This document shows, one piece after another, positions 4,791-63,654 of a DNA stretch of 64,000 nucleotides. The translations under genes were made by a program, and so were the position numbers. The stretch is from Candidatus Omnitrophota bacterium (GTDB lineage: Bacteria; Omnitrophota; Gorgyraeia; JABMRN01; RBG-13-46-9), in NCBI GenBank assembly GCA_016782425.1, contig JADHYN010000003.1, forward strand, positions 36,821 to 100,820, read 5' to 3'. Every line of letters starts with the position of its first letter. Positions within the stretch are counted from its first letter, which is position 1. Below the pieces are notes generated by a model. That model was not told where the DNA came from and did no database searches. It saw nothing but the letters and a program-made list of their open reading frames with translations.

Positions 4791-7700
4791 TTACTCCCAG
4801 CATATGGAATTAAAAGAGCAGTTATTACATTTTTCCGGGTCCCTTTCAGGAAGTTTGTCAAATCTCAGTTTGTTAATCTCTTTCCAAGCCCCGCATATGA
4901 CCTCTTCTAATTCATCGACCATCTCGTTAGTAATAGGTACCTTTTTATCGATATAATCGCCTTTTGTCAAGCTGTATTTAAGAGACGTCTTTTTTATCGG
5001 TTCCAGAAACACGAGTACACCGTGGCTTGCTTTGTATTTCGCCGGTTCATAGGTATCCCTTTCGTAGAGCATTTTGTAGGCAACCAACTGCCTCAGGTAA
5101 TTGTCGCACTTCTCGCTTTTTAGATCGCTTTCATTTTCGAGTTTCTTGAGGTGGTCGTCGGGCTTGCCTGTTTTATAGTCAATTATCCGTATGAGTTTCT
5201 TTTTTTCGTTTTCAAACTCAACCTTATCGAATTTGCCCGAAAAGATTATACCACCCTTTAATGTAACTATCTTCTTTTTTTCCAGATCAATAGGTGGCAC
5301 GGGATTGGCCCTGGTTTTTTTGAACCACACCTTGAGTTCGCCCAGTTTGGCCAGGCACCAATTCGCTATCGTTTTATTTACTCCTTGGAACCTAAGTTCC
5401 CTTTCGAAAGAAGCCTTGAAAAATCCGAAATCCGGAAATTTGTTTTCATTTTTATATTTTCTGTAGGTGTCCTCCAGTGCCTTGTGCGTGCAATTTCCGA
5501 ATACAAGGCTTTGCTTTTTTTTACCCGGCAGGAGAAGCAGGTTGTCATACAGAAACTTTCGCTTACACCTTAGGAAATTGTTAAGTTTTGTCGGCGTTAG
5601 AACAAGATTTTTGACCAGATCCCGTAGGGCATCTTCCGTATTTTTGAGGGGGTCTTCCCCCCCTCCCTTTTTAAAAAACTCCTTGAGTATATTTTCTTCG
5701 GTGTCCTCGTTATCTTTAAGTCCGATGCTCATATTGTTGAAGAAAGAACTCGCGACGGTATCCTCGGAGGGACTCGACGTGAAAATGAGGTTTGATTTTG
5801 TACGGCTTGCGGCCACGTAAAAAAGCCTTGTTTCGTCGAAAAACGAAAGCCTCGCAAATTCCGACTTGGTACCGACTTTTTCCTTGGCCTTTAGAATGCT
5901 TGGAGGTATGGGGATCCTGTCGGGTAGCGGTTTTAACGGCCAGCTTTTATCCTGCACGCAAAACGGTATGATGCAGGTATGAAATTCAAGCCCTTTTGAG
6001 GCATGGGCTGTGATTATGCGGACTCCGTCTTGCGTAGCTGTCACAAGCTGACCGGCTATCGGCATGTTATGTGTTTTCATTGTTTCCAGCTCGTCTAAGA
6101 ATTCGGTCAGCACAAGATCCGGCCTCGCCAAAGATGAATTTTTAACCATATTTATGAATGAAGTAAGAGCCCGTAGTTCCCTTGTTATTAGGATCTTGTT
6201 TTTCTCGTACTCGGTTATGATAAACTTGTAGAGGTTTACATCTTCTACAAAGCCCATTAAAAGATCATGTACCGGACGGGTATCGGCATCCCCAAGAAGC
6301 CGCTGTATCGCCCACGAGGCGAGGTGCATTTTATTCGCTTCGCCCAAGGTCAGTTTTTTAAGAAAAGGTAATTTTTTCGTATCTGAAAGCGATGGCTTTT
6401 TATCCAGCCTGTCCACGTGGAACGACCCGATAAATTCCGTTAATATGCTCGAAGGTGTTTTTTTATCTCTTTTATTCGCAAAGTTGATAAATTTCAAAAT
6501 GTCCCCTTGTGCTATCTCGAAGAAATCGCACGAAAGAACCCCGTAAAGGACAAGGTCTTTTTCCTCTAAATCGTATGTAGCGGTTCTGGCCAACTTCAGG
6601 ACATCTATCATTTGTCTTGCCCTTCTCTGGCAGCTTATGTCTTCTTTTCCGTCCGTTGCATACGGAATACCTGTCTTCAGGAAATTGTCTATCAGTTTCA
6701 AAATAAACGATCTTTTTCTCACGAGGATGGCAATCTGGTTATAAGGCCTTTTTCTTTCTTCCGCCTCGAGTTCCTTTGATGTCTTGATGGAATTGGCGAT
6801 CTCCCTTATCTTTCTGGTTATGCACATGATTTCCTCGTCCTCGGTCGTGAATTGCAGAAATTCGACGTTTCGCTTTTTATACCGCTTCTGCGGAATGAGC
6901 TCTTTTTGTTCGTCCAGGCGCTCTTTTGACGGTATTTGTTTGATTATGGACGAGGAGAGATCGATTATCTCTTTTGTCGACCTGTAGTTATTTTTTAATT
7001 TTATAACCTTAATCCGGGGAAATCTTTCCTTCAGCAGCCTGAAATTCGCTATGCTGGCGCCCTGGAACCTGTATATTGACTGGTCGTCGTCGCCGACGCA
7101 ACAAAGATTAGGATTTTTCCCCTCGCAGAGCGAAAAAAGAAGTTTAAGTTGCGCTCCATTTGTATCTTGGAATTCATCGACCATGATGTACCTGTATCGT
7201 TTTTGGTACGCCTTTTTAAGTTCCTGCTCCTCGGCCAGTATTTTTATGGCAATTATTATCATGTCGTCGTAGTCATAGCGGCCCCTTTCGTCGAATACGT
7301 TTTTGTTCCTGCCGCCCTTAAGCTCTTCGTATTTTTTATATATGAAAGAAAACTCCGCGAGTCTGGGCATGTGCTTCTTTTCGACGTAGATTCCGTCGGG
7401 TTTTACGTTTTGCAGCATCTTTTCAAAATCCGAAGGCGTGATGCCCTCGTTTTTAAGCTCGCTTATTCGCCTTGCGATTTCAAATATGTATAAGTATGGA
7501 TAGCCGAAAGGTCTCAATTCCTTGACGGAATCCGTGCAATTATCGACGATATATTCCAGGCTCTTTATTTTTTCGAGATCCGTCATCTGGATGCGCTCTT
7601 TTATATACGCGGAAGCCTCTTCGGAATCCAGTATCACGGAATTGGCAAAGCCGTGGAAGGTTTCAGCGGTAACCTTATACCCCTCAAAGCCCACGATCTT

Positions 7701-13989: not shown

Positions 13990-14652
13990 TCATGGCAAAT
14001 AATAAAACGGATTTTGTGGTTTGTGATTTTTTCTTATTTCAAAATGAAGAGTCGGCTTTTGTGCCCTTCCGGTCTTGCCGACCTTCGCTATTACTTCACC
14101 CTGCTTTACCCGTTGGTCTGGATTAACAAGATTTTGTTTGTTATACGCATACACGGTTTGGAGTCCGCCAGGATGGTCTATTATAATAGTTTTGCCGTAA
14201 CCCTTCATGTGATCACTGGCGAATGTTACCCTCCCACTCAGGGAGGCGACAACATTAGAACCATCACGAGCCTGTATGTTTAGGCCCTTATTTTTTACCA
14301 TATTATTCATCGAGCCGAAATACGAGACAATAATCCCTTTTACGGGCCATATAAAATTTTCCGACTTGGAACTTTTAACATAAACTTTTTTTCGGCCAGG
14401 GTCGCGGATTTCCGGGACAAAAACAAGCTGGCCGACTTCTATTTTACTCGCATCAGGCAGGCGATTCGCCCTGATGATTTTTTCAAGATCAACATTGTAT
14501 ATCCTGGATATGTTCCACAGGGTTTGGCCTCTTTCAACTTCGTGGTAAATTCCAGGAGTTGAGGTTCTTCCGATATCGGTTGGGTGGTACGCCACCGTAG
14601 CACAACCGCTTAAAAATATTACCAACAATAAACTTAAATATAACCGTTTCAT
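13990..14652 (-). CDS. LysM domain / M23 peptidase lipoprotein (NlpD-like)
   Basis: 220 aa with lipobox LSGC, a LysM domain (YHEVERGQTLWNISRIYNVDLEKIIRAN) and an M23 core (IIDHPGGLQTVYAY...PTLHFEIR). Confidence 0.85.
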   Translation of the reverse strand: MKRLYLSLLLVIFLSGCATVAYHPTDIGRTSTPGIYHEVERGQTLWNISRIYNVDLEKIIRANRLPDASKIEVGQLVFVPEIRDPGRKKVYVKSSKSENFIWPVKGIIVSYFGSMNNMVKNKGLNIQARDGSNVVASLSGRVTFASDHMKGYGKTIIIDHPGGLQTVYAYNKQNLVNPDQRVKQGEVIAKVGKTGRAQKPTLHFEIRKNHKPQNPFYYLP

Positions 14653-14770
14653 CTTATGGGAAAAAGATTGTTAAGAAAAAACCGTTAGGTTTTGTCTTAA
14701 ATCCAGTTAACGTTATCAACTTTCCTTCCAGTTAGGAAGGGGTACAGCCATCTTTTTTGAAAGAGGAACA

Positions 14771-14820
14771 TTAAGGAGAAAACTTTTTTAAAGAAACCTA
14801 GAAAAAAGTTGTCTCCTTAA
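14771..14820. repeat. 19-bp inverted repeat (one mismatch) with 12-nt spacer
   Basis: TTAAGGAGAAAACTTTTTT (14771-14789) pairs with AAAAAAGTTGTCTCCTTAA (14802-14820). The arms carry AAGGAG and CTCCTT. Confidence 0.85.
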
Positions 14821-14823
14821 ACA

Positions 14824-14910
14824 GGTGCGGGCGCAAGCCCCGCCTTATTTCTCGTTAGCGGGCTGAAGCGAAAAAAGAGAAATCCGCACTTTTTTCGCTG
14901 AAGCCGCACC
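14824..14910 (-). other. candidate structured RNA element with mutually exclusive pairings, directly 3' of tRNA-Gly
   Basis: There is an imperfect hairpin at 14858-14876 / 14890-14907. Its loop, GAGAAATCCGCAC, is complementary to GTGCGG (14825-14830) and ATTTCTC (14847-14853). A GC hairpin lies at 14827-14843. GGTGCGG (14824-30) can also pair with CCGCACC (14904-10). Confidence 0.35.
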
Positions 14911-14918
14911 TTGTAGAG

Positions 14919-14989
14919 AGCGGCTAGCGGGGATCGAACCCGCGTAACCAGCTTGGGAAGCTGGCACACTACCATTGTGTTATAGCCGC
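14919..14989 (-). tRNA. tRNA-Gly (anticodon CCC)
   Basis: A manual cloverleaf fits: acceptor GCGGCTA/TAGCCGC, D stem ACAC/GTGT, anticodon stem CCAGC/GCTGG with loop TTCCCAA, and T arm GCGGG-TTCGATC-CCCGC. CCA is not encoded. The 5' end overlaps the thiC stop region by 10 nt. Confidence 0.85.
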
Positions 14990-16275
14990 CTTCTTCCCTT
15001 CAAACATTTCTCGCTTATTTTAAGAGAACAATATTCGCTACACATCGTACAAACGTCTTTTATCGCAGGGGTTGAACTTTTTCTATACCTTTTGCACTTT
15101 TCCGGGTCGATCGCGAGTTTGAATTGCCGCTTCCAGTTCCGTGAAACCCGGGCACCTGATATCGCAATGTCTTTTTCGACTGCACCGGGCACATTTTTTG
15201 CGACATCCGCAGCGTGAGCCGCAAGCTTTGCTGCTACAACCCCGTCTTTAACATCCTCTATGGTCGGAAGCCTTAAGTGTTCCGCCGGCGTTACGTAGCA
15301 CAGAAAATCAGCTCCGTATCCCGCTGCTATAGCTCCGCCGATAGCACTTGTTATATGGTCATATCCGGGTGCTATATCGGTAACAATCGGACCCAATACG
15401 TAGAAGGGTGCGCCGTTACATATAGATTTTTCCAATTCCACGTTGGCTTTTATCTGGTTTAGAGGGACATGTCCGGGACCCTCGATGATGACCTGTACGC
15501 CTTTTTTAAAGGCCCTCTTTTGTAAATGGCCGAGCGTTAATAATTCGTCGATTTGCGGATCGTCGGTTGCGTCTACGATAGCGCCGGGTCTCATTCCGTC
15601 TCCGAGACTCAAAGTTATGTCGAATTCTTTCGCGATATCGACTATCTCGTCAAACATACTGTATAACGGGTTTTCTTTGGAGTTTTCGAGCATCCAATTC
15701 ACGAGAATAGCCCCGCCCCTTGAGACGATGCCCATAAGGCGGCTACTTCTCTTTAAGGAATTCAGTGTTTTTTGCGTTACCCCGGCATGTATCGTGAAAA
15801 AATCCACGCCTTCTTTTGCCTGTGCCTCTATGGCTTTAATAAAAAAACTCTCCGGGATTTTGCCGAGGCTGCCGTACTTTTTGCGACCGAGAATTGCAAT
15901 TTCGTAAACGGGCACGGTTCCTAAGGGTATATTCGACTTCTCAAGAATCCTCGCCCTTACCCTTTTTAAGTCCTTGCTTGTAGAAAGATCCATGACGGTG
16001 TCTGCGCCCAAACCCTCGGCAGCCTTTAGTTTCTTCAGTTCAAAATTTATGCTTGAGTAGTCTTTGGAGGTCCCGATATTTGCGTTGATCTTTGTTCGCA
16101 AACCCCTACCTATGGCGCAGGGTTTTTTGAAAGACCTCGCCTTATTTTTTGGAATAACGGCTGTTCCGTTGGCGAGGTTTTTGAGTAGTTCTCTTGTCTC
16201 TACACCTTCGGCTCTGGATATTTTTTTAACAAAGGGCGATTGTATGCCCTTTATTGATTTTTCAATTAGAGTCAC
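14980..16275 (-). CDS. thiC: phosphomethylpyrimidine synthase
   Basis: 431 aa, short-form ThiC, with a conserved core (GTVPVYE, FFTIHAG, GPGHVPL) and the C-terminal Cys triad CTMCSEYC. Confidence 0.9.
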   Translation of the reverse strand: MTLIEKSIKGIQSPFVKKISRAEGVETRELLKNLANGTAVIPKNKARSFKKPCAIGRGLRTKINANIGTSKDYSSINFELKKLKAAEGLGADTVMDLSTSKDLKRVRARILEKSNIPLGTVPVYEIAILGRKKYGSLGKIPESFFIKAIEAQAKEGVDFFTIHAGVTQKTLNSLKRSSRLMGIVSRGGAILVNWMLENSKENPLYSMFDEIVDIAKEFDITLSLGDGMRPGAIVDATDDPQIDELLTLGHLQKRAFKKGVQVIIEGPGHVPLNQIKANVELEKSICNGAPFYVLGPIVTDIAPGYDHITSAIGGAIAAGYGADFLCYVTPAEHLRLPTIEDVKDGVVAAKLAAHAADVAKNVPGAVEKDIAISGARVSRNWKRQFKLAIDPEKCKRYRKSSTPAIKDVCTMCSEYCSLKISEKCLKGRRRL

Positions 16276-38726: not shown

Positions 38727-38762
38727 AAATAAAAAACCCTTGACATCATTTGACGTCAAGGG
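38727..38762 (-). terminator. intrinsic terminator forming the riboswitch expression platform
   Basis: On the minus strand, CCCTTGAC-GTCAAATGAT-GTCAAGGG is followed by TTTTTTATTT. It ends about 9 nt before the receptor ATG. Confidence 0.6.
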
Positions 38763-38842
38763 TTGCACCCTGATTTACTTTACCCTTTATATACTGATAT
38801 TCCTTCGATATCAGCGGTAAAAATTTTATTTTTACCGATTAA

Positions 38843-39030
38843 TATATAGGCAGGTCTTCTGGCTTCTACTTCGTCCTAATCGCCTTGCCTTCCCGGTTTT
38901 CACCAGTGGCTTACTAAGGCTTTCGTCCGTAGATACAGCGGCGGGACCGCGCCTCTTTTTTCCCCTTATCGTTTTTTGCATCGATCGGGATTTTAGGCTT
39001 CCCTTTTATGTCCACTTGGACACCTATATA
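38843..39030 (-). promoter_or_regulatory. cobalamin (B12) riboswitch aptamer
   Basis: On the minus strand: P1 TATATAGG...CCTATATA; GTCCAAGTGGAC hairpin; AAAAGGGAAGCC; GCGCGGTCCCGCCGCTGT; GCCACTGGTGAAAACCGGGAAGGC; and the B12 box AGCCAGAAGACCTGCC (38864..38849). Confidence 0.85.
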
Positions 39031-39057
39031 GAGCACACTTTTTTAAAGAACGGTGTT

Positions 39058-51991: not shown

Positions 51992-52381
51992 TTAAACCCG
52001 TCTTCGCTTAGGTGGCCTGCACCCATTGTGCGGAATCGGTGTAACGTCTTTTATCGCCCTTATCGAGAGCCCCGCTGCCTGTAGGCTCCTGATCGCGCTT
52101 TCGCGGCCCGATCCAGGTCCCTTTACAAAAACTTCAAGTTCTTTTACCCCGCATTCCTTGGCCTTCTTGGCTGCGCTTTCTGCTGCTATTCCGGCGGCAA
52201 ACGGCGTCGATTTTTTGGAACCCTTGAAACCCACCGTGCCCGTCGACGACCAGCAAATCGTATCGCCTTTAGTATCCGTAATCGTGATAATCGTGTTGTT
52301 AAACGTTGCCAAGACATGGGCGATACCTTTTGGGATGTTCTTGGTAACCTTTTTTCTTGTTTTAATTTTTTTCTTTTGCAT
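51992..52381 (-). CDS. rpsK: 30S ribosomal protein S11
   Basis: 129 aa with [18 protein letters not shown]. Confidence 0.95.
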
Positions 52382-52384
52382 TTT

Positions 52385-52789
52385 TTACTCTGTTGTTTCT
52401 TTTATTGTTGGTCTTACGGCTTTAGCCCTTACCACACCTACAGTTTTTCTCGGGCCCTTGCGAGTCCGAGCGTTTGTACGAGACCTCTGCCCTCGGACCG
52501 GCAGGCTTCGTCGGTGCCTGAGTCCTCGATAAGTTCCTGCATCCATTAGTCGTTTTATGTTAGCTGTTCGCGCACGCCTCAAATCGCCCTCGACACTGCA
52601 GTCCTTCTGTATAACAGAAGTTATGCGCGAGACTTCTTCCTCGGACAGATTCTTTGCGCGTGTATCGGTATTAACGCTTGCTGATTTCAAGATTTTATTC
52701 GACATGGAACGACCGATACCGTGAATGTAAGTTAGGGCTATCTCTATGCGTTTTTCCTTCGGTATATCGACACCTATAATTCTCGGCAT
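52385..52789 (-). CDS. rpsM: 30S ribosomal protein S13
   Basis: 134 aa beginning [26 protein letters not shown]. Confidence 0.95.
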
Positions 52790-52802
52790 ATAATCCTTCT
52801 CC

Positions 52803-52916
52803 CTATCCCTGTCTCTGCTTGTGCTTCGGATCCCTGCATATAACCCTCAAAACACCTTTTCTGCGGATAATCTTGCATTTGGAACAAATTTTTTTTACAC
52901 TTGAACGTACTTTCAT
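52803..52916 (-). CDS. rpmJ: 50S ribosomal protein L36 (zinc-binding type)
   Basis: Absent from the ORF track. Manual translation gives [37 protein letters not shown] (37 aa), in the expected infA-rpsM position. Confidence 0.9.
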
Positions 52917-52927
52917 CCTGTTACATC

Positions 52928-53149
52928 CTACTTTCCCCTGCGAATAATTCTGCCCCTGGTAAGGTCATACGGGGAAAGTTCAACCGTTACCGAGTCCCCA
53001 GGCAGAATCCTGATAAAATGCATGCGCATTTTTCCTGAAACATGAGCCAGCACCTTATGCCCGTTTTCCAACTCAATTCTGAACATAGCATTTGGCAGCG
53101 TTTCCAAGACCTTGCCCTCTACAACAATTCCTTCTTCTTTGGGACTCAT
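52928..53149 (-). CDS. infA: translation initiation factor IF-1
   Basis: 73 aa with the S1-like fold ([20 protein letters not shown]). Confidence 0.95.
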
Positions 53150-53889
53150 GTTACTATCTCTACCCTTCCGCCAGCTATTACAACCGTATGTTCAAAATGT
53201 GCCGAAAGCTCGCCGTCGGTTGTTACTGCGGTCCAGCCGTCGTCTAATATTTTAACGGCGCTTGTGCCCGCGTTAACCATCGGTTCGATGGCTAAAGCCA
53301 TTCCAGCCTCAAGAACTTTTCCCTTGTGGGGTTCTCCGAAATTCGGCACTTCCGGCTCTTCGTGAATTTTCCTGCCTATTCCATGGCCAACGAACGCGCG
53401 CACAACGTTAAAACCATTAGATTCTACAAATGATTGCACTGCCCAGGATATATCCTGAACATGATTGCCCGCTCTTGCCATCTCAATTCCTTTAGAAAGA
53501 GCCCCCTCTGCTACAGAAACCAATCGCCTGGCCTCGCCGGAGATTTCTCCCACCGCGAAGGTTTTAGCCGCATCGGCAAAATAGCCTTTGTATTCCACGC
53601 CTATGTCAATGCTTATAATATCCCCGTTTTTCAGGATTTCTTTTTCACTTGGTATGCCGTGCACCACGACATTGTTTCGTGATGTGCATATACTGGCGGG
53701 AAATCCTTTATATCCGTGGAAGGCTAGACATGCATCCCGTGATGTAATAAAATCATCCGCTGCAACTTCCAGTTCTTTTGTGCTCGTACCTTCGGTTGTG
53801 CGCTTGGATAAAATTTCCATACATTCCCTTAGTACGGCGCCGGCTTTCCTGATATTATCGAGCTCGTTCTTATTTAAAAGAGGGATCAC
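53146..53889 (-). CDS. map: type I methionine aminopeptidase
   Basis: 247 aa with VVHGIP, DIGV..GY..D, GHGIG and EP. Confidence 0.95.
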
Positions 53890-54542
53890 TTCAATCCTTC
53901 TTTCTGCAAAAGTACCTTGATTACTTCAAACAAATTATCCACGTCCAGATCGCCGGAAACCTCTTGCAGGATGTCCTTTTCTTTATAATAACCGATCAGG
54001 GACTCGGTCTCTTTTTCGTAAACAACTAGTCGGTTTTTAACGGTTTTTTCCTTATCGTCGTTACGCTGTATGAGCTTGCCGCCACAGTAATCGCAAATCC
54101 CGCTTTTTTTTGGCGGCATATTCTTAACATGGAAATTAGCCCGGCATGCTTGACAAACGCGCCTTCCGGAAAGCCGCGCGATCGAAACTTCAGAAGACGT
54201 CTTAAAATACAAAACCATTTCAACTTTTTTGCCGACCCTCGCTAGGGATTCATCAAGCTGGTTGGCCTGCCTTTCGTTTCTCGGAAACCCGTCCAGCAAA
54301 AAACCTTTTTTTGCGTCTTCTTGCGAGATTCGTTCGATTACGATATCAATTACAATATCATCCGGCACAAGCTCTCCCTTGTCCATGTAGGTTTTTGCAC
54401 GCCTGCCTACTTCTTTGCCTTCTTTGAGGGCTTCTCTTAGCATGTCACCCGTTGAAACGTGTAGGAACTTGAATTCCCGTGAAAGAACTTTTGCCTGCGT
54501 TCCCTTGCCGGCTCCGGGTGGTCCGAGTAAAACTAAGTTCAA
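53886..54542 (-). CDS. adk: adenylate kinase (zinc-lid type)
   Basis: 218 aa with GPPGAGKGTQ and lid cysteines CQAC...CDYCGG. Confidence 0.95.
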   Translation of the reverse strand: MNLVLLGPPGAGKGTQAKVLSREFKFLHVSTGDMLREALKEGKEVGRRAKTYMDKGELVPDDIVIDIVIERISQEDAKKGFLLDGFPRNERQANQLDESLARVGKKVEMVLYFKTSSEVSIARLSGRRVCQACRANFHVKNMPPKKSGICDYCGGKLIQRNDDKEKTVKNRLVVYEKETESLIGYYKEKDILQEVSGDLDVDNLFEVIKVLLQKEGLK

Positions 54543-54546
54543 ATCC

Positions 54547-55893
54547 TCATCTCCTGCCCTTGACGCGACCCTTTTTCATGAATCCTTCATAGTGTCGTAC
54601 GAGAAGATGGGATTCGATCTGTCTCATTGTATCCAGCATAACTCCAACTATAATGAGAAGCCCCGTGCCGCCGAAAAAGCTTGCAACCAGATACGGTATT
54701 TTTAAAGCCCTTGATATAATGCTCGGCAAAACCGCGATGATAGCTAAAAATACCGCGCCCGGTAACGTAATGCGTGTCATAATAAAATCTAAATATTCCG
54801 CTGTCTGCCGTCCTGGCCGTATGCCGGGAACGAACCCGCCGAACCTTTTCATGTTGTTCGAAATGTCGATAGGGTTAAATGTGATCGCAGTATAGAAATA
54901 ACAGAAAAATACAATCAGCAATCCAAAAATAATGTTATATACAAATGTCTGCCTTGTAAGCATTGTAGCGATATTTTGCACGGCCTGGCTCGGTATGAGC
55001 CCGGCAATGGTAGCGGGAAAGAGAATGATACTTTGCGCAAAAATGATCGGAATAACACCCGCTTGATTGACGCGAAGAGGTATATAGGTACTCTGACCGC
55101 CGTAAATTTTTCTGCCGACCACCCTCTTTGCGTATTGAATTGGTATTTTTCGCTGTCCCTGCGTGATGGCTACTACCGCCACGATAACCGCTATAAGCAT
55201 TCCTGCCATGAGGACAAGCGTAAACGGATCGATTTGAGCTTTGCCGGGAGCACCGAAGCTTACAAGCTGCACGAGCTGCCCTATGGCCGCCGGCATGCGG
55301 GATATGATTCCGGCTGTAATTATAAGCGATATGCCGTTACCTATACCGTATTCCTGAATCTGCTCACCCAGCCACATTATAAAAGCAGTGCCACTTGTCA
55401 GCGTAATTACAGTCAGGATTCGGAAATACCACCCCGGGAACTGGACAATCTGCATCCCCTGGAATCTAGCCGGATTTTCCAGCCACAGCGCTATAAAGAA
55501 GGACTGTATTATTGCCAAAACCACGGTGCCGTATCGCGTATATTGGATAATCTTCTTGCGCCCCTCTTCTCCCTCTTTCGATAATCTTTCTAATGCAGGT
55601 ATAACAGCGGTAAGAAGCTGCAGTATGATCGAGGCGGATATATAGGGCATGATCCCGAGCGCAAATATGGTGAGCCTCTTAATCGCACCTCCCGAAAACA
55701 TGTTTATCATGCCGAAGAGCGTTCCGCCCTGCGTTCTGGCAATATTGTCAAAGAACTGAGCGAGCTTCCCACCGTCAATTCCGGGCGTAGGTATAAAAGC
55801 CCCTATCCTGAAAACAGCAATTAAAGCAGCTGTTATCAGTATTTTTCTTTTCAAATCCGGAACTTTAAATAAATTCGCAAATGTCCCTATCAT
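54547..55893 (-). CDS. secY: preprotein translocase subunit SecY
   Basis: 448 aa, 10-TM SecY pattern. Confidence 0.95.
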   Translation of the reverse strand: MIGTFANLFKVPDLKRKILITAALIAVFRIGAFIPTPGIDGGKLAQFFDNIARTQGGTLFGMINMFSGGAIKRLTIFALGIMPYISASIILQLLTAVIPALERLSKEGEEGRKKIIQYTRYGTVVLAIIQSFFIALWLENPARFQGMQIVQFPGWYFRILTVITLTSGTAFIMWLGEQIQEYGIGNGISLIITAGIISRMPAAIGQLVQLVSFGAPGKAQIDPFTLVLMAGMLIAVIVAVVAITQGQRKIPIQYAKRVVGRKIYGGQSTYIPLRVNQAGVIPIIFAQSIILFPATIAGLIPSQAVQNIATMLTRQTFVYNIIFGLLIVFFCYFYTAITFNPIDISNNMKRFGGFVPGIRPGRQTAEYLDFIMTRITLPGAVFLAIIAVLPSIISRALKIPYLVASFFGGTGLLIIVGVMLDTMRQIESHLLVRHYEGFMKKGRVKGRR

Positions 55894-56336
55894 TTTTTTG
55901 CTATGCCGATTTTCCCGCCGGCATCCGTGATTTTCTTCTTTGCGCTCTTAGAAAAAGCATCAGCCATAATGCTTAAAGACTTCGAAAGCTTGCCGTCGCC
56001 GAGAATTTTTACGAGGGCATCCGTCCTTTTTATAAGACGGGCTTCTTTCATGGCTTTTTTGTCGACCGAAGAATCCTTTTTGAAGCAATTCAGATTCTCA
56101 ACATTTATAATCTGATACACTTTCTTTTTTATGTGTGTAAAACCTACTTTGGGCAGGCGCCTTATTAGGGGCATCTGACCGCCTTCAAATCCGAGTCTAC
56201 GCGTTGCACCCGAACGCGCCTTGGCACCTTTGTGGCCGCGACCCGCGGTTTTTCCCCAACCGGAACCGGCGCCCCTGCCTACTCTTTTCGGCGCCTTACT
56301 TGCCCCTTTTGGTTTGCGTATGTTTTCGATTTTCAT
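55890..56336 (-). CDS. rplO: 50S ribosomal protein L15
   Basis: I set the start at ATG 56336 (MKIENIRKPKGASKAPKRVGRGAGSGWGKTAGRGHKG). The track ORF extension to 56471 runs into rpsE and is rejected. Confidence 0.9.
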   Translation of the reverse strand: MKIENIRKPKGASKAPKRVGRGAGSGWGKTAGRGHKGAKARSGATRRLGFEGGQMPLIRRLPKVGFTHIKKKVYQIINVENLNCFKKDSSVDKKAMKEARLIKRTDALVKILGDGKLSKSLSIMADAFSKSAKKKITDAGGKIGIAKK

Positions 56337-56341
56337 GTTTT

Positions 56342-56854
56342 TTATAACGAACTGTGTTTTCTGTAAAGCCGCAACTTCATAAACCCGATAAGCGTTGCCT
56401 TTGTAATATTTATCGGGTTTCTTGATCCGAGGCACTTTGTGAGTATATCTTTTATACCGAAGACTTCGCATAAGGCGCGCACCGCCCCCCCTGCTATTAC
56501 GCCTGTTCCGGGGCCCGCGGGTTTAAGCAATACATTCCCCGCCTTGAATTTCCCGATAACCTCATGCGGTATAGAGGTCCCTTTCATCTGGATAGTTACA
56601 AACGCCTTCTTCGCGTTGGCCATAGCCTTGGCGATTGCCGCGGAAATCTCATTGGCCTTTCCGAACCCTATGCCTGCGGTTCCTTTTCCATTACCGGCCA
56701 CCACAAGGACATTAAAAGAAAACCTTCGACCGCCCTTAACGACTTTGGACACCCTTCGTATGCTGACAACTTTTTCTACGAGGGCCTCCTTTTCTTCCCG
56801 CAGTCCGCCTTGCATCCTTGCTTTTCTTGCTTGTGATTTTGTTTTGTCAATCAT
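56342..56854 (-). CDS. rpsE: 30S ribosomal protein S5
   Basis: 170 aa with [16 protein letters not shown]15 follows 5 nt downstream, so no L30 gene lies between them. Confidence 0.95.
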
Positions 56855-56911
56855 TTTTAATCCTTAACCCCGTTAGATATTTCCCCGTCTAGACTTAAAT
56901 ATCTAACCGGG

Positions 56912-57268
56912 TCAAAATGCCAGTCCGTTCTTTCTTGCCGCTTCGGCAAATGCCTTTACCCGACCGTGATACAGGTAACCTGCCCTATCAAAAATTATTC
57001 TATTAAAACCCTTTTCCTTTGCCCTTTTGGCAAATTCCGCTCCGAGAAATTCGGCTGCTTTTATATTGCCGCCGTACGCAACCTTATTTTTTACCTCGGC
57101 CGTATTTGTTGAAAGAGAAAAGAGGGTCTGTCCTTTTAGGTCGTCGATGAGCTGTGCATACATGTTTTTGCTGCTCCTCCCGACACAGAGTCTTGGCTTG
57201 TCTTTGGTACCGATTAGTTTCTTCCGCAAAAGTTTATGTCTTCTTTTTCTACCCGTTACCTTTTTCAT
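56912..57268 (-). CDS. rplR: 50S ribosomal protein L18
   Basis: 118 aa with PRLCVGRSSKNMYAQLIDD. Confidence 0.95.
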   Translation of the reverse strand: MKKVTGRKRRHKLLRKKLIGTKDKPRLCVGRSSKNMYAQLIDDLKGQTLFSLSTNTAEVKNKVAYGGNIKAAEFLGAEFAKRAKEKGFNRIIFDRAGYLYHGRVKAFAEAARKNGLAF

Positions 57269-57804
57269 TTTGCCACTGTCTTTCCTGCTTTGTGCCTTAC
57301 ATATTCCCCGACATACCTTATGCCTTTTCCGGTGTACGGCTCGGGTTTAAAAAAATCTCTTATCTGGGCGGCTACCGCGCCGACTTTAACCTTATCCGTA
57401 CCCGCTACGACAATTTGGATGGGTTTTGGTGTGCTTACGCTGATACCCTCGGGTATAGCATATTTTACAGGATGGGAAAAGCCGAGCGTTATCTGCAAGG
57501 TGTTTCCCTGGGCCTGCGCTTTAAAACCCACGCCTTTTATTTCCAGTTCTTTTTTATATCCTTCGGTTACGCCTTTAATAAGGTTGAAGACGATGGTTCT
57601 TGTAAGCCCGCAGAGCGACAAATCTTCCTTAGACGATGAAGGCCTTTCAACGGCTATTCTATTGTCCTTTATTGTTATCTTGAACCTTTCGGGAAACCTG
57701 TGTTCCAACTTCCCCTTTGGGCCTTCGATATAAATAATATTACCTTTAACTTCGGCTTTTACGCCACTGGGTATATTAACAGGAATTTTACCAACGCGCG
57801 ACAT
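57265..57804 (-). CDS. rplF: 50S ribosomal protein L6
   Basis: 179 aa beginning MSRVGKIPVNIPSGV. Confidence 0.95.
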   Translation of the reverse strand: MSRVGKIPVNIPSGVKAEVKGNIIYIEGPKGKLEHRFPERFKITIKDNRIAVERPSSSKEDLSLCGLTRTIVFNLIKGVTEGYKKELEIKGVGFKAQAQGNTLQITLGFSHPVKYAIPEGISVSTPKPIQIVVAGTDKVKVGAVAAQIRDFFKPEPYTGKGIRYVGEYVRHKAGKTVAK

Positions 57805-57811
57805 TGTTCAC

Positions 57812-58210
57812 CTACCACACGTGACAGAGAATTTCTCCGCCGAGATTTTTTTCTTTTGCCTCTCTATCGGTCATGACGCCTTCCGGTGTTGAAATAAGGG
57901 CTATGCCGATTCCACCGTAGACACTTTTTATTTCCTTGCTTTTTATGTAAACCTTTCGCCCACTTTTTGAAATTCTTTTAAGGTCTGTCAGTGCCGGGGA
58001 GTTATCCTTTTCGTATTTGAGGTACACCTTTATAAGACCCTGCCGTTTATCATCAATGGTCTTATGGTTTGCGATAAAACCTTCCTTTTTTAAGATTTCA
58101 AGAATGCTTTCACTTAACCTTGACCTCTTGGCGATAACCGTTTGCTTGTGGGCCATAATCCCTGTTTTAAGTATCGCCAGCATGTCTGCAATCGGATCAG
58201 TTACGGACAT
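57812..58210 (-). CDS. rpsH: 30S ribosomal protein S8
   Basis: I set the start at ATG 58210 ([17 protein letters not shown]) with SD GAAGGA. The track extension to 58339 overlaps rpsZ and is rejected. Confidence 0.9.
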
Positions 58211-58223
58211 TTTTTCGTCCTTC

Positions 58224-58409
58224 CTACCAACTCGCTTTGACGACCCCCGGTATCTCGCCTCTGGATGCGAGCTCCCGGAAGCATATACGGCACAATTTGA
58301 ACCTGCGCATATATCCCCGTCGTCGGCCGCAAAGTTCACAGCGGTAATATTTTCTTGCTTTAAATTTTGGTTTTCGTTTTACTTTTTCAACAAGGCACTT
58401 TTTTGCCAC
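58224..58409 (-). CDS. rpsZ: 30S ribosomal protein S14, zinc-binding type Z (61 aa)
   Basis: I set the start at GTG 58409 ([17 protein letters not shown]...) with SD GAGGTG 5 nt upstream. It has [10 protein letters not shown]...CRIC. Confidence 0.9.
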
Positions 58410-58413
58410 AATT

Positions 58414-58956
58414 TCACCTCTTAAACGGCATACCAAAAAACCTGAGGAGTTCAAAACTTTCTTCTTTTTTCGTCGTAGAAGTAACCAGCGTTATGTCCAT
58501 GCCGTGCACCATGGCGATTTTGTCTATCTCTATCTCCGGAAAAATACCCTGTTCGTCTATCCCGAAAGAGTAGTTTCCTTGTTTATCAAAGGAGTCGGCA
58601 GGAACACCCCTAAAATCCCTGATTCGGGGCAAGACAACGTTGATAAGCCTATCCAAGAATTCGTACATTCGCGCCCGCCGCAATGTCACCTTGCACCCCA
58701 CTGGGTAGTTTTTTCTAATCTTAAAACCTGCGATTGCCTTTTTTGCCCTGGTGGCAACAGGCCTTTGGCCTGTAATCTCGGCCATTTCCTTCATTACGCC
58801 ATCCAGGAGCTTTTTGTCCTGCACGGCTTCGCCGAGGCCCACGTTTACCACTACCTTTTTGATATGCGGAACTTCAAGGGTATTTTTAAACCCGAATTTC
58901 TCCATCATCTTCGGAACGATTTCCTTTTTGTATCTTTCAAACAGTCTCGGCGTCAT
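58414..58956 (-). CDS. rplE: 50S ribosomal protein L5
   Basis: 180 aa; L5 family. Confidence 0.95.
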
Positions 58957-58958
58957 AA

Positions 58959-59270
58959 TCAGAATACCTCTTTACATCTTTTGCAAAAACGCGTTTTTGT
59001 TCCGTCTTTTAAAATATCGACACCGGTCTTTGTGGGTCCATTACACCCCTTGCAGAAAATTGCTAGGTTCGACAGATGAATCGAGGCCTCTTTTTGTACG
59101 ATTCCGCCCTTCTGGTCTTCCCTGGTACGCTTGGCGTGTTTCTTCACAAAGTTTATGCCTTCTACGATTGCTCTCTGGCGCCTTGGGATTACAAAGAGCA
59201 CTTTGCCGGTCTTTCCTTTGTCTTTACCGGCCAAGACACTGACCATGTCGTTTTTCGTAATATCCGACAT
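58959..59270 (-). CDS. rplX: 50S ribosomal protein L24 with CxxC...CxxC C-terminus
   Basis: 103 aa with a KOW motif (GKDKGKTGKV). The C-terminus reads FCKGCNGPTKTGVDILKDGTKTRFCKRCKEVF. Confidence 0.95.
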   Translation of the reverse strand: MSDITKNDMVSVLAGKDKGKTGKVLFVIPRRQRAIVEGINFVKKHAKRTREDQKGGIVQKEASIHLSNLAIFCKGCNGPTKTGVDILKDGTKTRFCKRCKEVF

Positions 59271-59272
59271 AA

Positions 59273-59641
59273 TTAAATAACCTCCGGCGCCAGCGAAACG
59301 ATTTTAAGGAAATTTTTTTCTCTTAATTCCCTTGCAACCGGGCCAAAAATCCTGGTTCCCTTGGGATTGTTTTGTGCATCAATTATGACGACCGCGTTTC
59401 GATCAAACTTCAAATACGATCCGTCCGTCCTTCTTATGGGCGCGGCGGTTCTGACGATAACCCCCCTTACCACCTCACCTTTTTTTATAGCTGCGTCGGG
59501 AGTGGCTTCCTTTATGTTACAGGTGATAATATCCCCGATGTCGGCACTCCTTCTTCCGGCGCGACCTAAGACGCCGATACAAGAGGCCCTCTTCGCCCCC
59601 GTGTTATCAGCAACGTCTAATTGTGTTTGCATTATTATCAT
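59273..59641 (-). CDS. rplN: 50S ribosomal protein L14
   Basis: 122 aa beginning [17 protein letters not shown]. Confidence 0.95.
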
Positions 59642-59650
59642 CGTAGATAC

Positions 59651-59917
59651 CTATTTCGCTTTTTCTATAATTTCTACAAGGCCCCAGCGCTTATTTTTTG
59701 AAAGGGGTCTTGATTCTCTTATTTTTACCATGTCCCCTTTTTTGGCTGAGTTTTTTTCGTCATGCGCTGTGAACTTGCTAAATCGTTTCATAATTTTTCT
59801 GAAGACGGGATGTACGGTTGTTCTACTGACACTGACGATGATGGTCTTGTCCATCTTGTCGCTCACCACGGTGCCGATCATCTCTTTCCGTTTGCGTATA
59901 TTCTTATTTTTCGGCAT
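59651..59917 (-). CDS. rpsQ: 30S ribosomal protein S17
   Basis: 88 aa with [16 protein letters not shown]. Confidence 0.95.
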
Positions 59918-60107
59918 TCTCTTTCTCCCTCAAAATCGTATAGCAACGCGCAATTTCTCTTCGTGTCTGACGCATTTGATGCGGCTTTTCGACCCTGCCG
60001 CTTTTTTGTTCAAACCGGAACTTGAACAGTGCCTCCTTGAGCGAAATGAGCTTATTGTTGATTTCCGCGGCGGTCATATTTCGAATGTCGTTCGGTTTTA
60101 ACGCCAT
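59904..60107 (-). CDS. rpmC: 50S ribosomal protein L29
   Basis: 67 aa; L29 family. Confidence 0.9.
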
Positions 60108-60108
60108 A

Positions 60109-60522
60109 TCAATGTCCTCGCGTTATAAATTTTGTCTTTATCGGCAATTTATGCGCGGCAAGCCGCATCGAATCTTTCGCCAGATCGTGGGGTATCCCTT
60201 CCATTTCGAAGAGCACTCTTCCTTTTCTCACAACAGAGACCCAGTGTTCCGGAGCGCCTTTACCCTTACCCATCCTTGTCTCAGCGGGTTTCTTGGTAAC
60301 GGGTTTATCCGGGAATATCCGTATCCACACCTTACCGCCGCGCCGCGTATTTCTCATGAGGGCGACACGCGCAGCCTCGATCTGCTTGTCCTTGATCCAG
60401 CCGTTCCCCAGCGCCTTGAGGCCATATTCACCGAAGCTGAGCTCGGATCCTGCGAAACTTGTGCCTTTTCGTCTACCGCGTTGCGTCTTTCTGTATTTAA
60501 CGCGCTTTGGCATTAAAGCCAT
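60109..60522 (-). CDS. rplP: 50S ribosomal protein L16
   Basis: I set the start at ATG 60522 ([12 protein letters not shown]) with SD GAAGGAG 7 nt upstream. It overlaps the rpsC 3' end by 26 nt. The track extension to 60606 is rejected. Confidence 0.9.
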
Positions 60523-61186
60523 TTTTCGGCTCCTTCTTTTCTTTTTCCTCGTACATCGTAAACTTTTCGCCTTTATAAACCCAGACTTTGATGCCGATAA
60601 GACCATAGGTTGTATGGGCTTCCGTAAAGCCGTAATCTATATCGGCCCGCAACGTCTGAAGTGGGATTTTGCCGTATTTTACCGATTCTTTTCGTGCGAT
60701 TTCTGCGCCTCCGAGCCTTCCTGAAATCTTTATTCTTAGGCCTTCACACCCCGCATCCTTGGCCATCTGGAGGGACTTTTTCAGCACCCGCCTGAACGGA
60801 ATGCGTTTTTCAAGTTGCAAAGCGATGTTCTCGGCGACAAGCTGGGCTTCCATAGCGGGCTTTTTGATTTCTTTTATATCTATGAAAATCTGTTTTTCGC
60901 CGACCATGGATTGCAGTGTCTCTTTTAAGGCCTCGATTTCCACACCCTTGCGGCCGATTACGACGCCTGGTCGGGCGGTGTATATCAATACCCTTATCCT
61001 GTCTCCCGCTCTCTCTATTTCGATATTGGAAACTGCTCCGCTGGACAACTTGTTTTTTATGTACTTCTTTAGCTTTAGATCTTCGATTAGCTGGTGGTGG
61101 AAAATATCTTTTTTTGCAAACCACCTGGATTTCCAGTTCTTTGTTATCCCTACCCTGAACCCGTACGGATGTACTTTTTGCCCCAT
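60497..61186 (-). CDS. rpsC: 30S ribosomal protein S3
   Basis: 229 aa beginning [14 protein letters not shown]. Confidence 0.95.
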
Positions 61187-61188
61187 CG

Positions 61189-61587
61189 TTACTTTCCCAT
61201 CTTAACCGTTTTTTTGATTTTTGTTTTTTTTGTCTCTTGAACCGGTTTCTTCAAAGCCTCCAGCTCGACCAATACATGGCTTGTCCTTTTTCGTATTATG
61301 CCGGCCCGCCCCATCGACATGGCCCTGTACCTTTTGAGCGCCGGGCCAGAATTCACAATGACTTTCGAGATATACACATTCTCTTCCGTAAAATTTTTCT
61401 CCGGCAATCTTTTTGCGTTATTTATAGCCGACTCGATAACCCCTTTTAATACCAGAGCCCCCTTTTTATTGACATTAAATAAAATATACAGAGCCTCATC
61501 AGCCTTTTTCTTGTTAACGAGCCTGGCTATGGGCCTTAATTTTTTAGGCGAAATTTTTAAATATTTTTCTAGCGCTCTTGCTATCAT
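61189..61587 (-). CDS. rplV: 50S ribosomal protein L22
   Basis: 132 aa; L22 family. Confidence 0.9.
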   Translation of the reverse strand: MIARALEKYLKISPKKLRPIARLVNKKKADEALYILFNVNKKGALVLKGVIESAINNAKRLPEKNFTEENVYISKVIVNSGPALKRYRAMSMGRAGIIRKRTSHVLVELEALKKPVQETKKTKIKKTVKMGK

Positions 61588-61616
61588 TTTAATCCTTAAC
61601 GCGTTAAGAAGAACAC

Positions 61617-61901
61617 TTACGTTTTATCCAGCGAAACCTCTGTTGCGGTACCGTGCTTCCTAAAGAATCTTGTATGTGCGAATTCACCGAGCTTGTGACC
61701 AACCATGTTCTCTACTACAAACACGGGGATGAACTTTCTCCCGTTGTGGACCATAAACGTAAAGCCTACAAAATCCGGCGGTATGACCGAACGCCGCGCC
61801 CAGGTTTTTATGGGTTTCTTTTCTCGCTTTTTTTCAAGCTTTTGGACCTTAATCAGCAGCTTTTCGTCAACATATGGTCCTTTTTTTGTGGATCGCGACA
61901 T
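61617..61901 (-). CDS. rpsS: 30S ribosomal protein S19
   Basis: 94 aa beginning [15 protein letters not shown]. Confidence 0.95.
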
Positions 61902-61904
61902 GTA

Positions 61905-62729
61905 TTATTTTCTCCTCTTTAATATGTATTTATCAGAACGCTTCGCCTTTCTTGTTTTTAAACCCTTCGTTACCTTGCCCCACGGCGTAGTCGGATGCCT
62001 GCCACCAGAGGATTTACCCTCTCCTCCGCCCATTGGGTGGTCAACCGGGTTCTTTGCAACGCCCCTCGAGTAAGGTCTTATACCTAAATATCTCGACCTT
62101 CCTGCCTTGCCCAGAATAATCGTGTCATGTTCAATGTTGCCCACCTGGCCTATCGAAGCAAAGCAATCGAGTTTTACAAGTCGAACTTCGCCGCTTGGCA
62201 TCTTTACGTGGGCAAATCCTTTTTCCTTGGCTACCAGGATTGCAAGATTACCCGCGCTCCTGGCGATCTTGGCGCCCGCGCCCCTCTCTAACTCAATGTT
62301 GTAAACGGGTATGCCGAGGGGTATTTTTTCTAAGGGTAGTGCATTTCCCACTTTGATCTCGGTGTTATCCAAAGAGGAAATTACGCCGTCACCGAGTTTT
62401 AACCCGTCCGGGCATATAATATAGCGCTTTTCTCCGTCCTGATATTCCAAAAGGGCTATGCGGGCGGTCCTGTTTGGATCATACTCAATTGCTATCACCT
62501 TTGCCGGAATATCGTATTTATCCCTCTTAAAATCGATGATGCGCCATTTTCTCTTATGGCCACCGCCTCTGTGGCGAGAGGTTATCCTTCCGTAAACATT
62601 CCTACCCCCTGTTTTCCGCAGGGCCACGGTGAGGCTTTTTTCCGGAGAATCCTTCGTGATTTCCTCAAAGCTATAGCCGCTTCCCCATCTTCTCGCCGGC
62701 GTTCTTGGTTTATATTTTTTTATTCCCAT
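61905..62729 (-). CDS. rplB: 50S ribosomal protein L2
   Basis: 274 aa with GGGHKRKWR and HPMGGGEG. Confidence 0.95.
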
Positions 62730-63007
62730 TATACAATCTCTATCTTCTCGCCCTGCTTAAGCGTAACGATCGCCTTCTTCCAGTCGGAGGTTTTACCTTC
62801 CACGTATCGCACGCGTTTTTTTTTACCTTTTACGGCAGTCGTATTTACTTTTTCAACCTTGACCTTGTATATTTCTTGCACGGCGTTTTTAATCTCGATT
62901 TTATTGGCCTTTTTATCAACCCAAAAAAGGTACTTGTTGAGGGGCAATAAATTCGTGCCTTTTTCTGTTCTTACAGGGCTTATGATTACTGAGTGCGCAT
63001 CTTTCAT
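62729..63007 (-). CDS. rplW: 50S ribosomal protein L23
   Basis: 92 aa; L23 family. Confidence 0.9.
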
Positions 63008-63654
63008 TTTTTAACCTGTCTGTTAAGAGATTCCGCTGCGCCTTTGGTTATGACCACGCGCTCGCGGGATAAAACATCGAGCACCGTCGCTTCAGCTATT
63101 CTCTTTAGCGTAAGGTTTTTTATATTTCGACTTGCTAAAAACAAATTCCGGTCGATTTTTTCTACAAGAAAGAGAACACTTGTCTTTATGTTCAAACCCT
63201 TGATTATCCGTGCGATGTTCTTGGTTTTCGGGATTTCGGTAGATATGTCTTCAACGGCCAAAATTTGCCCGCTCCTTAACTTCGCATTTAGGCTGGATAT
63301 AAACGCATTTCTTTTTAATTTTTTCGGCAAACTGTAACTGAAATCGCGCGGATGCGGTCCGAATGCAATACCGCCGCCTCGCCAGAGGGGGTTTCTTATT
63401 GACCCGAACCTTGCCCTTCCGGTTCCTTTTTGCCGCCACGGTTTTTTGCCTCCGCCTCGGACATCGCCTCTGGTTTTTGTGCTTGCCGTGCCCTTTCGCT
63501 GGTTGGCCCTATACATCAGAATCGACTGATATAGAAGCGCCTCGTTTGGCTTGCCGTCAAAAACGCTTTTATCTAACTCCAGGGACTCTACCTTATTACC
63601 CTTTGAGTTAAATAGAGGGATTTTATTTATACCTTGGCTACTTTGTTTTTTCAT
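63004..63654 (-). CDS. rplD: 50S ribosomal protein L4
   Basis: 216 aa with RGGGKKPWRQKGTGRAR. Confidence 0.95.
   Translation of the reverse strand: MKKQSSQGINKIPLFNSKGNKVESLELDKSVFDGKPNEALLYQSILMYRANQRKGTASTKTRGDVRGGGKKPWRQKGTGRARFGSIRNPLWRGGGIAFGPHPRDFSYSLPKKLKRNAFISSLNAKLRSGQILAVEDISTEIPKTKNIARIIKGLNIKTSVLFLVEKIDRNLFLASRNIKNLTLKRIAEATVLDVLSRERVVITKGAAESLNRQVKK

Follow-up and report, generated by a model that had tools for sequence, protein, structure and literature searches.

The spacer between tRNA-Gly(CCC) and a LysM/M23 lipoprotein gene in an Omnitrophota genome: probably a mosaic tRNA flank that keeps one covarying RNA hairpin

Results

Genes and features of the locus

The window analysed here comprises 64,000 nucleotides (nt) of contig JADHYN010000003.1 from a Candidatus Omnitrophota bacterium, in which thiC, tRNA-Gly(CCC), a 265-nt spacer and a lipoprotein gene with LysM and Peptidase_M23 domains (called the M23 gene for simplicity) follow one another on the - strand (Table 1). 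The original prediction had presented this spacer as a candidate unclassified RNA switch or non-coding RNA. We found it to be non-coding, strongly structured and without a known family. Three other lineages keep one of its hairpins, H1, with compensatory changes, so the locus does appear to contain a structured RNA element; the switch part of the proposal did not hold up. Because the corresponding spacers of related genomes form a fast-changing patchwork in which only the tRNA-adjacent hairpin is conserved, we do not regard the sequence as a riboswitch for M23. With a probability of roughly 0.55, we consider it this genome's form of a mosaic, quickly evolving region 3' of tRNA-Gly(CCC) in one Omnitrophota clade and not a leader through which M23 responds to a ligand or signal.

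Related loci, labelled L0xx, were collected by searching species-representative genomes, JGI metagenomes and public assemblies with the M23 protein. The stop codon of thiC lies inside the 5' end of the tRNA gene (10-nt overlap, 14980-14989), as it does in L035, and the tRNA is therefore embedded in the thiamine-biosynthesis operon and must be cut from an mRNA. It carries no encoded CCA. A standard promoter scan of the spacer returned no sigma-70-type site; a lenient scan gave two 7-of-12 -35/-10 pairs sharing a TAAGAT -10 over the start codon and, additionally, a weak TGATAACGT. No terminator-like site was found on the - strand between 14300 and 15300. Given the thiC/tRNA overlap and the promoterless spacer, co-transcription of thiC, tRNA, spacer and M23 gene is the simplest reading. 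The missing Shine-Dalgarno (SD) sequence of the M23 gene, pointed out earlier, is real and ordinary: SD-like motifs precede 29 of the 64 long open reading frames (ORFs) of the window, and no obvious SD was seen before M23 in any orthologue read.

Table 1. Features of the thiC-tRNA-Gly(CCC)-M23 locus in window coordinates.
Feature	Position	Strand	Evidence or remark
thiC	14980-16275	-	ORF; Pfam ThiC_Rad_SAM, E 6e-184
tRNA-Gly(CCC)	14918-14989	-	ARAGORN; Rfam RF00005, 69.7 bits
Spacer, 265 nt	14653-14917	-	Between tRNA-Gly(CCC) and M23 gene
tRNA trailer UCUACAAGGUGC, includes 5' strand of P1 (AGGUGC)	14906-14917	-	Conserved
Hairpin H1: GGCU-UC-AGCGAAAAAAG, 11-nt loop UGCGGAUUUCU, CUUUUUUCGCU-UC-AGCC	14861-14905	-	Repeat search, covariance model
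GC-rich hairpin H2, core GGGC-UUGC-GCCC	14827-14843	-	Repeat search, fold
P1 block UGCGCCCGCACCUGU	14821-14835	-	15/15 identical to L021 1764-1778
Hairpin H3, 19-bp AAGGAG/CUCCUU inverted repeat	14771-14820	-	Fold z -4.4
Block F: AAAGUUUUCUCCUUAAUGUUCCUCUUUCAAAAAAG	14752-14786	-	35/35 identical in L029, L030, L031
Module E: CUGUACCCCUUCC-UAACU-GGAAGGAAAG	14720-14747	-	Common to L021, L005, L029, L004
21-codon TTG-initiated ORF, ends 1 nt before M23 ATG	14654-14719	-	Probably a remnant
AU-rich hairpin H6, 13-nt arms, 92% complementary	14671-14700	-	Repeat search, fold
LysM + Peptidase_M23 lipoprotein gene, lipobox LSGC	13990-14652	-	Pfam PF01476, PF01551

Compensatory changes in hairpin H1

The tRNA trailer and H1 are shared by four lineages (window, L021, L005 and L029), and in all four H1 starts 13 nt after the tRNA. 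A covariance model of H1 was built from the window, L021 and L005 copies and searched against 181 kb; it independently picked up the copy of L029 (35 bits, E 4e-7), with no further significant match. Since MAFFT mis-registers H1 of L029, the model-based alignment was used for further analysis. The four copies share 15 pairs, with 98.3% of the cells paired, and 4 of the 15 pairs are changed on both sides, compared with none in all six slid controls, a count made on four sequences in an alignment fitted to the model. Three G-U pairs occur on the gene strand and one on the other, which speaks for an RNA of the gene strand. The loop motif G-N-G-Y-G-G(A) is kept in 3-4 of the 4 lineages and the UC/UC internal loop in three of the four copies (UCC/UGC in L029). 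The stem carries A6/U6 runs, and the U-run of H1 sits within the stem. A coding explanation for the conservation was rejected, as the frame is broken in L029 by an extra A/U pair and the pairing covaries.

The first 18 nt of the spacer (14900-14917) are identical to L021 (18/18), match L005 at 17 of 18 positions and occur as variants in L024 and L025. The 15-nt block that contains the 3' strand of helix P1 recurs in one relative, L021. This strand (GCACCU, 14823-14828) pairs with 14906-14911 and closes a predicted three-way junction of P1, H1 and the GC-rich hairpin H2; the junction is predicted alike in L021 despite a different H2 sequence, the hairpin at this position there reading CUUUUUGCC-UUCG-GGCAAAAAG. 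As far as the compared sequences can tell, H1 is the only element of the spacer with evidence of selection on RNA pairing, and together with P1 it is probably a functional RNA hairpin.

Fold of the spacer and its alternative pairings

Dense structure had been claimed for the spacer and was confirmed by folding both strands. The minimum free energy (MFE) of the gene (-) strand was -87.6 kcal/mol, compared with -59.0 ± 4.7 kcal/mol for dinucleotide shuffles (z = -6.1), and the + strand reached z = -6.3. Each third of the spacer taken separately also beat its shuffles (z of -3.3, -4.4 and -3.2). On the gene strand, the predicted fold consists of the junction of P1 (AGGUGC/GCACCU), H1 and H2, the 19-bp hairpin H3, and a domain with the small E hairpin, a palindrome and the AU-rich hairpin H6. 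The window has only four close inverted repeats (at least 15 nt, arms no more than 60 nt apart), and two of them lie in the spacer. The remaining two are a hairpin with 19-nt arms (89%) at 56864-56915, which overlaps the 3' end of an L18-like ORF (56912-57268, -) and runs on downstream, and a 22-nt imperfect palindrome within a long ORF at 6399-6434.

The complementarities described in the original prediction were all recovered from the sequence and the repeat search. The arms of the 19-bp inverted repeat with one mismatch and AAGGAG/CTCCTT in its arms (H3) lie at 14771-14789 and 14802-14820 (19 nt, 95% complementary), and those of the ~18-bp hairpin (H1) were found at 14861-14877/14889-14905 (17 nt, 88% complementary) as opposed to 14858-14876/14890-14907 in the earlier description. 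GTGCGG (14825-14830) and ATTTCTC (14847-14853), two segments that flank H2, together form an exact complement of the 13-nt H1 loop GAGAAATCCGCAC (14877-14889), and the alternative pairing of GGTGCGG (14824-14830) with CCGCACC (14904-14910) corresponds to P1, the closing helix of the MFE fold. Full split coverage of the loop arose in 6 of 200,000 shuffles of the 43-nt downstream segment, in a test chosen post hoc. The loop-to-flank complementarity is absent in L021 and down to 5-6 nt in L005 and L029. With this pairing unconserved and with short-spacer orthologues that lack the elements altogether, the idea that mutually exclusive pairings act as a switch or attenuator was abandoned.

The proposed sequestration of an SD by an anti-SD also failed: between H3 and the M23 start codon downstream of it lie at least 119 nt, and 158 nt separate its AAGGAG from the M23 ATG; no start codon follows the AAGGAG, which is not the SD of any gene. 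H2, for which a role as the terminator of the tRNA had been considered, has a U-tract on the + strand only, where there is no gene to terminate, and no GC-stem with a U-run that could act as an intrinsic terminator of the tRNA is present on the gene strand. An expression platform was likewise not found at the M23 start, with AAGGAG distant and the U-tract on the + strand; the E hairpin and the TTG-initiated ORF stood outside this test. As already suspected, no known riboswitch motif is present. At the gathering thresholds of Rfam 15, nothing in the whole window passes except the tRNA and a cobalamin riboswitch far away from it. At E values up to 10, both strands of 14400-15200 yielded, beyond the tRNA, chance hairpin matches only (miRNA and similar). 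The best sub-threshold match, Plastid-psbA-2 at H3, reached 35 bits against a gathering score of 55.8 and is attributed to chance.

A conserved gene order with a variable spacer

The order thiE-thiC-tRNA-Gly(CCC)-spacer-M23-ATPase_2-Metallophos_2 is kept in about 20 Omnitrophota relatives, with M23 orthologues at 46-75% identity in Omnitrophota metagenome-assembled genomes, and across these relatives the length of the spacer varies ~75-fold. It measures 25 nt in L014, 47 nt in L026 and 60 nt in L011, 138 nt in L017, 174 nt in L005, 225-228 nt in L015/L016, 379 nt in L003 and about 500 nt in L007, and it reaches 0.4-1.9 kb with inserted ORFs in L024, L021, L032, L002/L028 and L029. The three shortest spacers contain none of the elements of the window, and L011 is the closest relative (75% amino acid (aa) identity in M23). 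No promoter-like site was found in the spacers of the short-spacer relatives; in 13 relatives a TTGnTATAATA motif lies 22-33 nt 5' of the M23 start. The inserted ORFs encode a 121-aa secreted protein in L024, two small basic proteins and a 114-aa protein in L021, a GIY-YIG protein in L032, a DUF2204 nucleotidyltransferase in L023 and TPR proteins in L002/L028 and L029. Pfam assigned no family to the small ORFs of the relatives.

Identity at third codon positions of M23 between genomes is 42-49% (42% for the window versus L029/L030/L031). Divergence is thus near saturation, and perfect blocks of 15-35 nt therefore imply constraint or recent exchange. Similarity to the window spacer is confined to the trailer with H1, the 15-nt P1 block, module E and block F. 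The hairpin of module E (6 bp, 14724-14740; consensus CUGUWACCCCYUYCC...) occurs in five lineages (window, L021, L005, L029 and L004), and in L021 its 3' arm GGAAGGGGAG serves as the SD of a small basic ORF. L024 has only the 5' half of the trailer and H1; the 5' arm of H1 acts there as ribosome-binding site of the inserted 121-aa ORF, with GGAGAAAAAAGAT-ATG as binding site and start. In L029, modules H1 to F precede a gene for a TPR membrane protein and not M23; the order is E, F, a TTGAAC-N17-TATTAT promoter and the TPR gene, compared with F then E in the window, and the E hairpin with a U-run (UUUU) at the start of F looks terminator-like. All modules are single-copy and confined to one locus and one orientation: neither the window nor, off-locus, 117 kb of relatives' DNA yielded another copy of H1, H3, E, F or the P1 block, even with mismatches allowed. 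The situation thus differs from that of a riboswitch, where the same domain would stand upstream of orthologous genes; here the spacers range from 25 nt to 1.9 kb and the modules lie before other genes in L024 and L029.

Further locus-specific hairpin modules that are absent from the window were seen at L021 1784-1810, L029 258-286, L004 94-135 and L029 202-243. They include GGGGAA(AA)CC-AA-GGTT(TT)CCCCTATGGCG, with a compensatory length change, and a hairpin TCCCGCGC...GCGCGGGA; the order of the modules differs between genomes.

Lineage-specific elements of the window spacer

Apart from H1, the structures singled out earlier are not conserved in related genomes: the 19-bp hairpin, the sequence of the GC hairpin and the loop-to-flank pseudoknot all lack support there. 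Block F begins with what is the 3' arm of H3, and no relative examined has anything that corresponds to the 5' arm and loop of H3. For this reason H3 looks like a lineage-specific inverted duplication of the start of F, with no demonstrable role. The H2 sequence has no counterpart in any relative, nor does H6, which lies 18 nt 5' of the M23 start, and all three hairpins are lineage-specific in this comparison. An independent assembly of the same organism (L001, Logan contig SRR12042682_29326) carries an identical M23 gene, agrees fully over the 130 nt upstream of it and breaks, at its position 1, exactly inside the 3' arm of H3; assemblers often break at inverted repeats. A 24-codon spacer ORF (MFLFQKR...) was considered and rejected, as its first 7 codons are shared with L029 only through block F and it has no SD.

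The first 12 nt of the 21-codon TTG ORF and the 3 preceding nt resemble the start of a small basic ORF of L021/L022 (AAGTTGATAACG vs AAGTTGATAGCG); beyond these 12 nt no similarity and no homologue were found in the relatives. The 21-codon ORF is probably a remnant of a small basic ORF. Two conserved ORFs of this kind lie between tRNA and M23 in several relatives (L012 218-446, L021 1869-2504, L022 2275-2504, L027 307-426 and L038 about 491-719). The first encodes 42-50 aa (MKLI.N.LCRKRYKV..KLRKWI.GGRWGW.TGKPKKCREKK), and the window retains only a 12-nt remnant of it. The second encodes 39 aa (MPRE[KR]ITRRQKN..RLLREKK...) and overlaps the M23 start (ATGA) in L012, L021, L022 and L038.

Rearrangements next to the tRNA in relatives

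Short inserts are bounded by direct copies of the 3' half of tRNA-Gly with its trailer, of which L007 (3454-3907) has three of 52 nt and L017 (838-988) two of 24 nt. On sequence grounds these duplications are an attachment-site (att)-like signature of either site-specific integration or tandem duplication at the tRNA. The tRNA-M23 spacer of L003 (3678-3850) contains nested perfect or near-perfect inverted-repeat arms of 36 and 16 nt, and in L032 inverted repeats with 44-nt and 22-nt arms (2444-2549 and 2875-2941) flank an 82-aa GIY-YIG ORF; a repeat related to these inverted repeats (GAATACTTACGTATTC core) also occurs upstream of M23 in L029. Because relatives carry partial tRNA copies, inverted repeats and inserted ORFs, the tRNA flank qualifies as a recombination-prone site in this clade. 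A partial tRNA copy was not detected in the window spacer, where the best local alignment of the 3' 42 nt of the tRNA scored 14 and shuffles averaged 13.8. IMG/VR contained neither F nor the trailer, blastn searches of phage and plasmid collections with the spacer as query gave no match, and the tRNA 3' end pattern matched only unrelated phage tRNA-Gly(GCC) genes.

Other features of the window

The statement that the spacer is the second-longest non-coding gap of the window was about right: most larger gaps hold small ORFs, and the leader with the cobalamin riboswitch is longer. Most gaps are apparent only, because the crude ORF map used ORFs of at least 120 aa and missed the ribosomal-protein-like ones, such as those of a cluster at about 52000-63700 with S13-, IF1-, L18-, L16-, S19-, L24-, L14- and L23-like small ORFs. 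The cobalamin riboswitch (RF00174, 93.8 bits, 38832-39042, -) lies upstream of a 699-aa ORF and is followed by a classical GC-stem and U-run terminator at about 38745-38790 (CCCTTGAC...GTCAAGGGTTTTTT), and the genome therefore uses canonical intrinsic terminators.

Discussion

In the explanation that we favour, a mosaic tRNA flank, thiC, tRNA, spacer and M23 gene would most likely be transcribed as one unit, from which RNase P would cut at the 5' end of the tRNA; at the 3' end an endonuclease such as RNase Z would be needed because no CCA is encoded. Once the tRNA was excised, the M23 mRNA would begin with the spacer as its 5' leader. P1 would enclose H1 and a second hairpin in the window genome and in L021, and H1 would most likely act in processing, stability or insulation where tRNA and mRNA meet, for instance by shielding the new 5' end of the downstream fragment or by defining the 3' cut of the tRNA. 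E and F are here probably leftovers of arrangements that serve other neighbours in the relatives.

Several observations weigh against this explanation. That the genes are co-transcribed, where the processing sites lie and which strand yields the functional RNA are all inferences. P1 would lie 7 nt from the predicted 5' end, a position that gives weak protection against 5'-end-dependent decay in E. coli, and relatives without H1 manage without it. The covariation of H1, derived from four sequences in a model-fitted alignment, is suggestive rather than statistically strong, and a shuffle control reached the observed H1 values in 10 of 500 cases. The structure in all three sub-domains (z -3.2 to -4.4) exceeds what leftover sequence would need, and the exact identity of F across such divergent genomes is unaccounted for by a mosaic junction.

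The rearrangements in the relatives are also what one would expect if the hairpins were ends or remnants of integrated or foldback elements at a tRNA integration hot spot and mattered at the level of DNA only. The partial tRNA duplications, the long inverted repeats, the inserted accessory ORFs and the large variation in spacer length would all follow, as would the look of H3 as an inverted duplication and the equally good folding of both strands. The flank in the relatives resembles the tRNA att sites of integrases in its partial duplications, accessory genes and extreme length variation; unlike these sites, the window spacer holds no tRNA repeat, no integrase, transposase or other recombinase and no second copy of a module, and a direct repeat of the tRNA 3' end that bounds an insert was found in L007 and L017 only and not in the window. 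Short hairpin modules that are reordered and renumbered between genomes also bring to mind the REP/BIME elements of E. coli, the BOX elements of pneumococcus and MITEs, but those are dispersed in many copies, whereas the spacer modules occur once each, always at the same locus and in the same orientation. Together with the lack of matches in viral contigs, phages and plasmids, and with the G-U pairs and compensatory changes of H1 that point to selection at the RNA level, this makes mobile-DNA debris an unlikely origin of the spacer structures.

Selection on RNA would also be accommodated if a small RNA derived from the trailer, consisting of P1-H1-H2 and possibly extending to E/F, were released from the thiC-tRNA precursor. 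The tRNA-proximal domain (trailer, P1, H1, a variable H2 and maybe E/F) would then be an undescribed, clade-specific functional RNA of Omnitrophota that either acts in trans, as a sponge like a 3'ETS (ETS, external transcribed spacer) or by binding a protein, or serves as a dedicated signal that ties removal of the tRNA to what then happens to the downstream mRNA. A precedent is 3'ETS-leuZ, which pairs with RyhB according to PMC6191717 (citing Lalaouna et al. 2015). As in tRNA 3'ETS-derived RNAs, the tRNA is co-transcribed with protein genes (here with the thiC overlap), a structured and partly conserved segment lies directly 3' of it in the position of the trailer, and tRNA processing would release this segment or expose it as a new RNA end. 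The covariation of H1 with its kept loop motif and UC/UC internal loop and the junction shared between the window and L021 fit such an RNA, and the UUUU after the E hairpin of L029 would provide a terminator-like 3' end. What differs is that the trailer in the window genome is not followed by a canonical terminator, that no target, Hfq or small-RNA partner is known, and that the conserved part is a 45-nt hairpin restricted to a few Omnitrophota lineages. Since only four of about 20 lineages carry the H1 domain and the closest relative lacks it, and since the permuted module order misfits a single defined RNA, we regard a trailer-derived RNA as doubtful and its proposed trans-acting or coupling functions as equally so.

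The original notion of a cis-regulatory M23 leader is the least probable of these explanations and appears very unlikely to us. In this case alternative pairings, either a competition of P1 with the pairing of the H1 loop to GAGAAAU and CCGCAC, or an E hairpin that covers GGAAGG ahead of the 21-codon upstream ORF, would switch read-through or translation in response to a ligand, temperature or a protein. Long structured non-coding sequence upstream of a gene and alternative pairings are indeed hallmarks of riboswitches and SD-sequestering leaders, and the mutually exclusive pairings, which shuffling rarely reproduces, the structure in every third of the spacer, the short ORF that ends at the start codon of an M23 gene without SD, the E hairpin of L021, which pairs with the SD of the ORF that follows, and the AU-rich H6 followed by U-rich sequence ahead of the M23 start all speak for it. 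Unlike these regulators, however, the spacer has no conserved aptamer, no fixed downstream gene, no platform at the M23 start and, down to chance level, no Rfam match. The loop-to-flank pairing decays in the very lineages that keep H1, while H3, H6 and the 21-codon ORF have no counterpart in the relatives, M23 orthologues use 25-60-nt spacers or their own promoter, the conserved modules precede unrelated genes in L024 and L029, and the absence of an SD is the majority state in this genome.

A literature search on Omnitrophota tRNA spacers gave nothing relevant, and we know of no experimental work on RNA maturation in Omnitrophota. That the riboswitch candidacy fails is worth stating, as it spares follow-up effort. 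What remains is modest but real: a small covarying hairpin at a tRNA/mRNA junction in a poorly studied, uncultured phylum, and two ultra-conserved short blocks of no known function, at a locus where insertions, deletions and rearrangements keep remodelling the sequence 3' of one tRNA gene and a few RNA modules persist. If it is true that H1 directs processing or stability, it would provide a handle on RNA maturation in Omnitrophota.

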